64,000 nt of DNA, from positions 1-64,000 of the forward strand of contig CAWHCQ010000028.1 in NCBI GenBank assembly GCA_963827755.1. Direction: 5' to 3'. The notes beneath the pieces are model-generated. The model saw only the letters and a program-made list of their open reading frames with translations. It was not told where the DNA came from and made no database searches. Of the stretch, positions 61,011 through 61,792 are shown piece by piece (position 1 is the stretch's first letter; the number at the start of each line of letters is the position of its first letter). A program made the translations under genes and the position numbers. This DNA comes from an uncultured Gammaproteobacteria bacterium (GTDB lineage: Bacteria; Pseudomonadota; Gammaproteobacteria; UBA9214).

Positions 61011-61035
61011 GGCCTGTAGCACAGTTGGTTAGAGC
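61011..61035 (+). repeat. Truncated duplicate of the tRNA-Ile 5' end (acceptor strand + D-arm)
   Basis: GGCCTGTAGCACAGTTGGTTAGAGC versus 61483-61507 GGCCTGTAGCTCAGTTGGTTAGAGC; 24/25 identical. Confidence 0.9.
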
Positions 61036-61394
61036 TTGCAGTCCGGGTTATGCAATTCTGCATGACAGTTAGAGCACAGCAGACGGCATTTATCAGCCTC
61101 TTCAAGCACGCTGTCCCATTTCCTGTTTGACAGAGATCTCAGGTCAAGCTGGAATAATTTTGTTTTCGGATCAGCATGGTGAAATTCCAGAGCGGCAAAA
61201 TTCTGTTTATAGCCACAGGTCTCGCATTTTGATCCTTTGAGCCTAATCAGTTCTATTTTACGGCTCCGCCCCCTTAGCTGCTGAGCCTGGTAACTTTGAT
61301 AGGACTGATTGTTATAGCTGTTTTTGCACAGTCGCGAACAATATTTACGTTGCCTGCCAACGAGAATCTTCCCGCATCCAATGCATTTGTACAT
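61029..61394 (-). CDS. Free-standing HNH endonuclease with N-terminal Zn-finger-like CxxC...CSxxC
   Basis: MYKCIGCG...YCSRLC; CETCG...LEFHH...KCRLLCSNCHAELH; AT-richer than its neighbours; alternative start 61427. Confidence 0.85.
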   Translation of the reverse strand: MYKCIGCGKILVGRQRKYCSRLCKNSYNNQSYQSYQAQQLRGRSRKIELIRLKGSKCETCGYKQNFAALEFHHADPKTKLFQLDLRSLSNRKWDSVLEEADKCRLLCSNCHAELHNPDCKL

Positions 61395-61462
61395 GCCGGA
61401 TATTATATAGACTATGAAATTAAACATAATCCATTAATTTATGTTTATCCATGCTGAAAACT

Positions 61463-61471
61463 TGCTAGAAT
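61463..61471 (+). promoter_or_regulatory. Extended -10 promoter for tRNA-Ile
   Basis: TGcTAGAAT followed by GC-rich GCTCGCC, 10 nt before the tRNA. Confidence 0.6.
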
Positions 61472-61481
61472 GCTCGCCTTC

Positions 61482-61792
61482 GGGCCTGTAGCTCAGTTGG
61501 TTAGAGCAGGGGACTCATCAAAATGGTGCGTTCGTGCCGAAAGGCATGAAATGAACGGGATGAATTCAGGGAAACCTTAGCAGTCAGGCTGATGGTAACC
61601 CTGAGCCAAGCCGGAGGTACACCTCCGGAAGGTGCAGAGACTACCTGGGGACTTCAGTGTCCTTAATAACAGGCAAGAGCGTCCCGCGCCCTAACAGTCT
61701 TGCTGAGGGTGATGAGATAGTCCGCTCCTGGTAGAAATATCAGGCTACAGTGAATCCCTTGGTCGAAGGTTCGAGTCCTTCCGGGCCCACCA
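61482..61792 (+). tRNA. ileX: tRNA-Ile2(CAU), intron-containing (exons 61482-61518 and 61753-61792)
   Basis: Spliced form GGGCCTGTAGCTCAGTTGGTTAGAGCAGGGGACTCAT|AATCCCTTGGTCGAAGGTTCGAGTCCTTCCGGGCCCACCA (77 nt). G1-C72 is paired, so it is not an initiator; it lies downstream of rpoD like E. coli ileX. Confidence 0.93.
61519..61752 (+). ncRNA. Group I self-splicing intron (IC3-like core, ORF-less, 234 nt)
   Basis: P1 CAU|CA/UGGUG with U.G at the splice site; P2 GAAA loop; P3 CGGGAU/GUCCCG; P4 UCAGGG/CCCUGA; GAAGGUGCAGAGACUA; P7 GACUA/UAGUC; P9 GAAA loop; terminal G. Confidence 0.95.

Follow-up and report, generated by a model that had tools for sequence, protein, structure and literature searches.

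The window analyzed here, a stretch of 64,000 nucleotides, covers positions 1 to 64,000 of contig CAWHCQ010000028.1 in the assembly GCA_963827755.1 of an uncultured gammaproteobacterium. This assembly comprises 52 contigs and is labelled G000 below, the contig of the window being C28; G-numbers stand for genomes and L-numbers for loci (L031 is the locus of G008). Near the end of the window, the tRNA-Ile2(CAU) gene that follows rpoD is split in its anticodon loop by a group I intron devoid of any open reading frame (ORF), and is preceded by a divergent gene coding for a candidate HNH endonuclease and by an extra copy of the tRNA 5' end (Table 1). The pair formed by this intron and this free-standing nuclease gene, together with its relatives in other genomes, is the subject of this work.

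A preliminary description made from the letters of the window alone had listed rpoD, a tRNA 5' fragment, a minus-strand HNH gene, a spacer with an extended -10 promoter and a split tRNA. All these parts were recovered at the same coordinates: the fragment begins 47 nt beyond the rpoD stop codon (about 48 nt in that description), the promoter motif is present and conserved in the spacers of related loci, and the start of the HNH gene at 61394 agrees with the start position in its relatives. The ORF initially listed for this gene runs from 61029 to 61427 on the minus strand; since its relatives begin 2 to 3 residues ahead of the first CxxC motif, we placed the true start at the ATG given in Table 1. 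The stop codon and the last leucine codon of the HNH gene are built from letters of the tRNA D-arm, inside the fragment. The layout of the window, with an upstream divergent HNH gene and an intron-split tRNA gene, was seen again in 74 other loci and is therefore more than a product of chance.

Table 1. Features of the tRNA-Ile2(CAU) locus and its surroundings in the window.
Feature	Position	Strand	Remarks
dnaG	upstream of rpoD		near the start of the last 5 kb of the window
rpoD	59140-60963	+	ORF of 607 aa; upstream anchor gene
rpoD-tRNA spacer, native	60964-61010	+	47 nt
tRNA 5' fragment	61011-61035	+	25 nt; equals tRNA positions 2-26 (61483-61507), 24/25 by blastn-short
HNH gene	61029-61394	-	121 aa; stop codon 61029-61031, start ATG 61392-61394
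AT-rich spacer	between HNH gene and tRNA		87 nt
TATAAT	61402-61407	-	7 nt before the HNH ATG; likely -10 box
Inverted repeat GACTATG-N8-CATAATC	61410-61431		halves 61410-61416 and 61425-61431
Extended -10, TGCTAGAAT	61463-61471	+	putative cassette-borne tRNA promoter, 10 nt before the tRNA
tRNA-Ile2(CAU), whole gene	61482-61792	+	ARAGORN with introns allowed
tRNA-Ile2 5' exon	61482-61518	+	terminates in the anticodon CAT; 100% identical across all loci of the genus
Group I intron, ORF-less	61519-61752	+	234 nt; between tRNA positions 36 and 37 (CAT, A37)
tRNA-Ile2 3' exon	61753-61792	+	encoded CCA
Island, start	61793-64000		at the tRNA 3' end; outside the HNH-intron element
Insertion sequence (IS) transposase	62159-63250	+	Pfam rve
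AbiEii	63275-63994	-	Pfam AbiEii

The split tRNA-Ile2(CAU) gene and its intron

ARAGORN with default settings detected no tRNA between positions 55000 and 64000, and the split gene was called only when introns were allowed. Genes of this kind thus escape default tRNA finders, as seen here and in the accessible part of the tRNAscan-SE 2.0 report (PMC8450103). Anticodons were read by eye because ARAGORN misnames them when introns are allowed. Three tRNAs with a CAU anticodon were found in G000, namely an elongator tRNA-Met on contig C30, an initiator tRNA on contig C52 and the intron-bearing gene; as the elongator and the initiator are already present elsewhere in the genome, the third one is tRNA-Ile2. 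The E. coli tRNA-Ile(CAT) gene also lies downstream of rpoD, with mug in between. The joined exons of the window are identical to it at 64 of 77 positions, and rpoD of the window shares 82% DNA identity with the annotated E. coli rpoD. Furthermore, the pairs C4-G69 and C5-G68, which we take to be TilS determinants, are visible in the window tRNA.

The intron matched Rfam model RF00028 over its whole length (model positions 1-253), scoring 81.8 bits where the gathering score is 50 (E = 6e-21). Its terminal letter is a G (61752), and no ORF of at least 40 aa was found within positions 61519-61752. Covariation was examined in 29 sequences, made up of the window and 28 of the 74 other loci chosen for their diversity: the U-G pair of the splice site in helix P1 is present in all 29, and 40 of the 72 predicted pairs show compensatory (double) changes. 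We presume that the intron belongs to subgroup IC3 and occupies the same insertion site as the Azoarcus intron.

Sequencing runs X1, X15, X16 and X17 were compared with the window and provided a hint of intron excision and a view of allele diversity. Metatranscriptome run X17 contains a 259-nt contig, about 98% like the window, that joins position 61752 to position 61522 (intron position 4). This joint corresponds to a 231-nt circle of the type formed by excised group I introns, in a single contig and with a 3-nt ambiguity. Contigs from the RNA run span the exons and the intron and leave 61018-61465 uncovered, which permits no inference on HNH expression. DNA run X1 contains a 98% copy of the fragment and of the HNH gene as well as the exact intron-less joint (61518 to 61753), showing that intron-plus and intron-less allele types coexist in one sample.

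The HNH protein and its relatives

The protein matched the PHROG family phrog_2255 ('HNH endonuclease') over residues 1-116 (E = 1e-25). No NCBIfam match to the HNH ORF was found, a sequence search of the PDB gave nothing below E = 0.5, and 268 unnamed clusters of about 121 aa in the protein collection matched. Residues H72, H73, N90, H111, H115, C57, C60, C107 and C110 are invariant in 22 aligned sequences, and so is an N-terminal C4 zinc ribbon. The AlphaFold model (predicted local distance difference test score, 92.9) shows strands at residues 69-73 and 103-107 and a helix at residues 108-115. A Foldseek search with this model returned mostly HNH-type nucleases as top matches (Cap5, the HNH domain of Cas9, T4 endonuclease VII and a Geobacter nicking (Gme) HNH protein); none reached E ≤ 0.001, the best E being 0.06. 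As modelled, the protein would combine the N-terminal C4 zinc ribbon with a beta-beta-alpha-metal HNH domain, making it a candidate free-standing homing endonuclease.

Relatives are also encoded by phages, in 387 records that all share less than 60% identity with the protein and have the same two-part build. The closest of them (48% identity, with an N-terminal extension) is encoded by an uncultured phage of 636 kb (L220; LR756504.1, 334469-337816), where an intron-less tRNA(CAU) gene precedes it on the same strand, about 65 nt upstream of its start.

The ratio of nonsynonymous to synonymous substitution rates (dN/dS) ranged from 0.04 to 0.16 in the 9 of 45 pairs that were usable, the other 36 being saturated at synonymous sites, which indicates purifying selection. 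Decayed copies also occur, as L073, L110, L140 and L158 carry in-frame stops. The idea that the C-terminal codons of the HNH gene (CAT AAC CC) mimic the anticodon loop was rejected, since this resemblance follows from a conserved His-Asn-Pro motif.

The HNH gene is linked to introns of tRNA(CAU) genes

A scan of one genome per species revealed 484 places that encode an HNH relative, of which the best 80 were examined, and a scan of metagenome contigs supplied 80 further loci. [quoted passage not shown] By Rfam, 65 of the 80 genome loci (13/20, 20/20, 18/20 and 14/20) have a group I intron that touches the HNH gene and scores at or above the gathering score; by ARAGORN with introns allowed, 73 have an intron-bearing tRNA gene adjoining or enclosing it. 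The addition of L037, which is clipped by a contig end and linked through Rfam, brings this count to 74; the other six comprise five loci clipped on the relevant side (L056, L058, L059, L098 and L100) and one exception, L067. Among the 80 metagenome loci, ARAGORN linked 70, L175 was added by eye based on its ribozyme and 3' exon, and 7 were clipped.

Because these 160 loci had been picked through their HNH gene, we also drew 300 genomes evenly from the class, searched them with an HNH profile (E ≤ 1e-15) and scored the intron in 299 of them. The intron was present in 22 of the 299 and the HNH gene in 5 genomes besides G000. In all five, the HNH gene sits on the contig of the intron, faces away from the tRNA gene and lies 116-230 nt from its start, while none of the 277 intron-less genomes encodes it (Fisher p = 1.4e-6). 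Within the genus of the window, none of the 15 intron-less rpoD-linked tRNA genes has an HNH neighbor. The preliminary description had raised a link of HNH homologues to intron-bearing tRNA genes rather than to intron-less alleles, and such a link holds in the genus and in the class sample. It had also raised a joint occurrence of HNH gene, 25-nt duplication and intron; the association of HNH gene and intron stands, and the duplication does not share it, being confined to six loci of one subclade.

Four layouts of the HNH gene around two insertion sites

The HNH gene was found in four positions relative to the intron-bearing tRNA gene. The upstream divergent layout of the window is represented by 74 loci, nearly all from Gammaproteobacteria, with the intron between tRNA positions 36 and 37. 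A downstream layout was seen in L071 (722-1456), where the HNH gene lies 33 nt 3' of the intron-bearing tRNA gene, on the same strand. Twelve loci from Bacteroidota are sense-intronic, with the HNH gene in the extended P1 loop of the same kind of intron. Finally, 56 loci from Acidobacteriota, candidate phyla and unbinned contigs are antisense-intronic: the HNH gene is again in the P1 loop, its stop at most about 20 nt from the 5' exon, and the intron is a different group I intron located between tRNA positions 33 and 34. Layout and insertion site correlate without exception in this set.

An HNH tree was built from 156 rows and 121 columns, leaving out four rows with in-frame stops and one short row. 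It supports the Bacteroidota group (Shimodaira-Hasegawa-like approximate likelihood ratio test [SH-aLRT] 99) and the small clade of the window (99). Its deep order is weak, and 63 of its 140 inner branches are unsupported. We considered an origin of the window layout from an antisense-intronic ancestor through duplication of the 5' exon, and demoted this idea to a rival explanation because an antisense HNH gene in a 36/37-type intron was found in none of the 160 loci and because the fragment is confined to one subclade.

Patchy distribution and tree conflict within the genus

Of the 37 genomes in the genus, 27 yielded the rpoD-tRNA locus and 7 carry the HNH gene, in single copy and always beside the intron (G000, G008, G020, G017, G042, G016 and G007). 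G047 (L120) retains an intact intron and tRNA gene, with only the last ~38 nt of the HNH gene left and joined to the conserved tRNA promoter; the HNH gene is complete in G042, the sister of G047 on rpoD. G018 has the intron only, directly behind a spacer of the native type. Fifteen genomes have an intact intron-less tRNA gene 42-62 nt after rpoD, without HNH gene. In G023, the tRNA gene is broken by an inserted element, and the loci of G043 and G044 are clipped by contig ends.

In a 25-row tree built from the final 1080 nt of rpoD, each intron-bearing genome has a strongly supported intron-less sister, and at least 7 state changes are implied. Uniting the eight intron-bearing genomes on rpoD costs 521 log-likelihood units (approximately unbiased [AU] test, p = 3e-9). 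The tree of the HNH gene and spacer separates (G000, G008, G007) from (G020, (G017, G042, G016)), and host-like groupings are rejected on these data (AU p = 0.0034 and 0.00023). Both element lineages, the one that has the fragment and the one that lacks it, appear at scattered places in the rpoD tree, which argues against vertical inheritance of the element. This pattern is the one expected of a homing gene that spreads, is kept by selection only as long as it moves, and decays.

Two of these loci show further rearrangements. In G018 (L011, oriented 1288-1600), a 157-nt segment made up of the tRNA promoter region, the 5' exon and about the first 66 nt of the intron is duplicated in tandem. In G023 (L125/L022), tRNA-Ile2 is interrupted right after CTCATAA, where the intron would insert, and the inserted DNA begins with a long transposase-like ORF; no 3' half of the tRNA gene was found nearby.

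The duplicated fragment is the 5' end of the resident tRNA gene

The fragment is carried by the window, G008 (L031), L138, L139, L140 and L141, which form one HNH clade (SH-aLRT 99). G007 belongs to this clade as well, and its contig ends at the junction. L138-L141 are the four closest metagenome relatives of the window, with 79-88% protein identity. Local alignment behind the HNH stop of 50 genome loci revealed the fragment in L031 only. An anchored test on 73 upstream divergent loci was significant at p ≤ 0.01 in L031, L138, L139 and L141, L140 having escaped it because of its in-frame stop, and the fragment was absent from 68 of the 73. G020, G017, G016 and G042 have a hairpin at its place. 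Apparent remnants in L074/L168 and L155/L156 were dropped (p = 0.1-0.45).

In all six carriers, the fragment starts where the tRNA gene of intron-less relatives starts. The spacers ahead of it fall into three types that share 43-59% identity with each other, and each type resembles intron-less kin: the window spacer is 63-65% identical to those of L139 and L141, 55% to that of intron-less G012 and 45-49% to the two other types, while L138 and L140 reach 94% and 81% identity with intron-less G003, and G008 65-66% with G045 and G002. Position and spacer kinship together indicate that the fragment is the resident tRNA gene's own 5' end, bearing out the earlier suggestion that the old 5' end was left behind.

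Five of the six carriers have a nearly perfect fragment, although only its last 7 nt are coding, and three changes are already present in the fragment of the 98% relative from DNA run X1. These observations suggest that the fragment is young in each lineage, in which case the cassette would have arrived or been exchanged by recombination ending inside the fragment. The junction follows TTAGAG (tRNA positions 20-25), whose reversed reading gives Leu-stop. CTCTAA is also the commonest ending of the HNH gene (6 of 73 loci, three of them fragment carriers). Because the last leucine and stop codons of the HNH gene are letters of the tRNA D-arm, a six-base microhomology at TTAGAG could have made the junction once.

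Promoters and a candidate self-operator

The extended -10 motif TGCTAGAAT was found in 20 of 66 unique HNH-tRNA spacers (mean of 0.05 after shuffling) and is kept in all HNH-bearing loci of the genus that were compared. On the opposite strand, G008 has the same TATAAT-N7-ATG geometry as the window, and the window has no Shine-Dalgarno-like letters between the two, which suggests that the HNH mRNA is leaderless. A scan for two-hexamer promoters between positions 60900 and 61900 returned none, and the promoters named here rest on -10 motifs and their conservation.

A search of the spacers for the 13-mer junction gave a weak signal (mean best score of 8.24 vs 7.72 after shuffling; 5 of 74 loci significant) and was replaced by a k-mer census of the 66 unique spacers. 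CATAATC was the top 7-mer, present in 21 of the 66 (shuffle mean, 0.7), and its reverse complement GATTATG the fifth (18 of the 66; shuffle mean, 0.6). Set 6-9 nt apart and about 20-45 nt upstream of the HNH start, the two heptamers make up an inverted repeat, and CATAATC is the exact sequence over the intron-less insertion site CAT|AATC. Judged from this post hoc match, the inverted repeat is probably an autoregulatory operator that mimics the homing site and would be bound by the HNH protein. The same mimicry is a hint, equally post hoc, that the nuclease may recognize the junction.

In many antisense-intronic loci, the start codon of the HNH gene lies within TCATAAC(C/T)G, matching their own junction CT|CATAACCG. 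This resemblance is weak overall, as 4 of 48 loci had at most 2 of 200 shuffles as good. In antisense-intronic loci such as L176, L185, L191 and L205, a palindrome ACAATGCAGTTA...TAACTGCATTGT spans the start codon, and its right half resembles the tRNA junction CT|CATAACCG.

A likely composite element with collaborative homing

We consider it likely that this locus is a composite selfish element in a chromosomal tRNA-Ile2(CAU) gene, in which an ORF-free group I intron and an upstream divergent, free-standing HNH gene are co-inherited and co-transferred by collaborative homing. Co-inheritance, as expected of a collaborative pair, was observed wherever the HNH gene occurs in the genus (7 of 7 genomes) and in the class sample (5 of 5). 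Traits of a homing gene were also found, i.e. linkage to a presumably self-splicing element, a patchy distribution, conflict between trees and decayed copies. Collaborative homing is a probable, albeit unproven, mechanism at the locus. According to this scheme, the intron would keep tRNA-Ile2 functional through self-splicing while the HNH protein would nick or cut intron-less alleles near the anticodon loop (CTCAT|AATCC), a site that the intron would split in its own allele. Recombinational repair would then copy the intron, and a conversion tract of ~130-500 bp upstream would also take the promoter and the HNH gene. In the sublineage of the window, a cassette made of the HNH gene, the promoter, a new 5' exon and the intron would have been joined to the resident tRNA gene at about position 25, the 25-nt leftover acting as a left homology arm within the tRNA gene. 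The HNH protein would also repress its own gene through the CATAATC inverted repeat, without cutting it.

Several observations weigh against this reading. First, the target of the HNH protein, its type of cut and its discrimination between alleles are inferred. The Pfam HNH model (PF01844) scores the protein at only 14.2 bits, below the cut-off of 21.4. The right half of an intron-less target (CTCAT|AATCCC to CCA, 49 nt, C28:65599-65647) stands unconverted 3.8 kb downstream of the locus, and two CATAATC-like sites of the promoter region are intact as well; these uncut copies imply either that recognition needs more than the core sequence or that the enzyme is tightly repressed or inactive. Second, the linkage is not complete. 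Seventeen of the 22 intron-bearing genomes of the class sample lack the HNH gene, so the intron persists without it, and three loci with full flanks have the HNH gene apart from any intron-bearing tRNA gene. In L067 (2900-3363), the last ~18 nt of a tRNA gene and nothing more precede the HNH gene, which looks like a decayed downstream layout. In L174 (1150-2100), the HNH ORF terminates within a tRNA 5' fragment of 24 nt, like that of the window, and its neighbor is an intron-less tRNA-Ile(UAU) gene within a tRNA cluster; the locus may have decayed in an organism with no further need of tRNA-Ile2. In L184, no tRNA gene lies near the HNH gene. Third, no recent transfer was caught among the sampled species. 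The synonymous divergence (dS) between elements ranges from 0.6 to more than 2.8, with 36 of 45 pairs saturated, and the reverse test on rpoD against a grouping of G000 and G008 was marginal (AU p = 0.04). Within the fragment clade, the HNH gene of the window is nearest to those of L139 and L141, then L138, then G008, an order that is compatible with the host order. Part of the pattern is accounted for just as well by vertical descent and repeated loss.

The strongest rival, which we nonetheless regard as unlikely, builds on this last point: the element would be inherited vertically and now immobile, its patchiness would reflect repeated loss, and the fragment would be the relic of an old rearrangement. 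Loss could proceed through recombination between the fragment and the 5' exon, which would remove the HNH gene, followed by replacement with an intron-less allele. The rearrangement itself could have been a duplication of the 5' exon that placed a once-intronic antisense HNH gene outside the intron. The age of the elements, the agreement of HNH similarities with host order in the fragment clade and the marginal rpoD test all fit such a history, and G018 and G047, reduced to the intron and deleted of the HNH gene, respectively, show that loss occurs. Furthermore, the antisense-intronic layout of other phyla has the same geometry, with the 5' exon next to the HNH stop. However, both element lineages are scattered over the rpoD tree, and the fragment looks young, being near perfect in five of six carriers while the spacers ahead of it have diverged to 43-59% between types. 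Moreover, the intermediate with an antisense HNH gene inside a 36/37-type intron was not found among the 160 loci, and purifying selection on an immobile and purely selfish nuclease would be hard to explain.

It is quite improbable that the HNH protein has been domesticated for the benefit of host or intron, e.g. by assisting splicing or by regulating the tRNA-Ile2 promoter via the palindromic site, and has ceased to be a homing endonuclease. Such a role would account for the strong purifying selection, for a gene that is intact in nearly all of ~150 loci, for the conserved inverted repeat shared by the divergent promoters and for the uncut target-like copy on the same contig. However, all catalytic and zinc-binding residues are invariant, and the protein is dispensable in 17 of 22 intron-bearing genomes. 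Pseudogenes and one deletion exist, and the distribution is patchy and in conflict with the host tree. Moreover, four layouts around two insertion sites fit a nuclease that tracks a DNA target rather than the partner of one RNA. Finally, the view that the HNH gene is a chance neighbor unrelated to the intron, either a generic phage-type gene (387 phage records with relatives under 60% identity) or the remnant of an island (the tRNA 3' end does carry one, with IS and AbiE genes), is hardly tenable given 145 linked loci out of 160, the Fisher p of 1.4e-6 in an unbiased sample and a 470-bp insert that has no integrase and sits at the 5' end of the tRNA gene, not the 3' end.

Beyond collaborative homing at this locus, we tentatively advance a broader scenario that we hold to be possible though not the likelier outcome. 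One HNH family would have tracked the anticodon loops of tRNA-Ile2 genes over at least four phyla, moving repeatedly among the four positions described above; in the sublineage of the window, the composite cassette (HNH gene, promoter, fresh 5' exon and intron) would home as one unit through its 25-nt left arm, its nuclease regulated by a palindromic copy of the homing site. If true, these loci would form a natural series for the assembly and dismantling of mobile group I introns.

Comparison with known systems

I-Ssp6803I, encoded within the group I intron of the tRNA-fMet gene of Synechocystis, is a homing endonuclease of the PD-(D/E)XK type. Like the protein of the window, it is tied to a group I intron that interrupts a bacterial tRNA(CAU) gene at its anticodon loop; unlike it, it is intron-encoded and resides in an initiator tRNA gene, whereas the window protein is of the HNH type, lies outside the intron and is associated with tRNA-Ile2-like genes. 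I-TevI represses its own gene at an operator that resembles its homing site. Sequences near the nuclease gene likewise resemble the exon junction in our loci (CATAATC half-sites and TCATAAC(C/T)G), as in the accessible account of I-TevII, an example of the invasion of introns by endonuclease genes (Loizos et al. 1994, cited in PMC3984707). The operator proposed here is a candidate read from spacer sequences.

Collaborative homing by a free-standing nuclease and an ORF-less intron is described for two phages in the part of PMC3984707 available to us. In both cases as in ours, a nuclease gene outside an ORF-less intron stands beside the interrupted gene, the pair is co-inherited and the proposed target is the intron insertion site. 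The two settings differ, according to the same text, in that the phage pairs reside in a protein-coding gene whereas the gene that holds ours is a tRNA gene of a bacterial chromosome. The phage enzymes were shown to cut at the insertion site, and the same is proposed for the HNH protein of the window. Furthermore, relative to what that text describes, the HNH family also occurs inside introns in both orientations and downstream of the tRNA gene, in ~150 loci from several phyla, and one sublineage is embedded in its target through a duplicated 5' end.

Group I introns in tRNA-Ile genes are themselves known. The accessible sections of two reports describe a group I intron free of ORFs in the Azoarcus pre-tRNA-Ile (PMC3984707) and group I introns in tRNA-Ile2(CAU) genes of Acidovorax and Burkholderia (PMC8450103, tRNAscan-SE 2.0). 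Going by these sections, they share with the window the tRNA species, an intron in the anticodon loop, the lack of an ORF and the bacterial class; they differ in that no nuclease partner is described there (PMC3984707, PMC8450103).

A full-text literature search, which did not cover subscription-only papers, turned up neither a family of HNH genes linked to introns of tRNA-Ile nor a bacterial chromosome with this arrangement; the preliminary description likewise knew of no such case for a bacterial chromosomal tRNA. As far as we found, collaborative homing at this locus, if true, would be the first instance in a bacterial chromosome and in a tRNA gene. For the long-standing question of how group I introns come by homing endonucleases, the available text of PMC3984707 offers two phage examples of collaborative homing and one intron with target-like flanks around its ORF. 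Against this background, ~150 loci of one nuclease family around one target gene, including free-standing, downstream, both intronic, decayed and intron-only states, make up a comparative series that renders the proposed pathway of endonuclease acquisition testable, which is the main value of the finding. The HNH protein is also a tangible candidate enzyme with specificity for a tRNA gene and a likely operator of its own, and the 268 unnamed clusters of ~121-aa proteins could now be annotated.

The island at the tRNA 3' end and other group I introns of G000

The DNA inserted at the 3' end of the tRNA gene, which extends beyond the window, also encodes AbiEi, and no integrase was seen in it. 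This island is closed by an exact 44-nt repeat of the 3' exon (C28:65604-65647) preceded by CTCAT, the anticodon loop in its intron-less form, and a second, partial repeat (84%) lies at C28:68408-68473. Integrase-borne islands are likewise bounded by a partial direct repeat of the tRNA gene, a trait that the HNH cassette shares. The cassette differs from them in that it duplicates the 5' end, measures about 470 bp, lacks an integrase and brings its own promoter. We considered and rejected its assignment to islands of the integrase type, as no ORF other than that of the HNH gene lies in the 470-bp insert and the duplicated part is the 5' end.

Two other matches to group I introns were observed in G000. 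One, on the minus strand of contig C37 (L004; C37:3425-3697), is weak, with 28.7 bits, far under the cut-off. The other is a group I-like intron of 245 nt in a tRNA-Leu(UAA) gene on contig C32 (L003; C32:87-418), which scored 46.1 bits with Rfam (gathering score 50). No HNH relative lies beside this tRNA-Leu(UAA) gene, the genome having a single HNH match. ARAGORN with introns allowed also called the split tRNA-Leu(UAA) gene.

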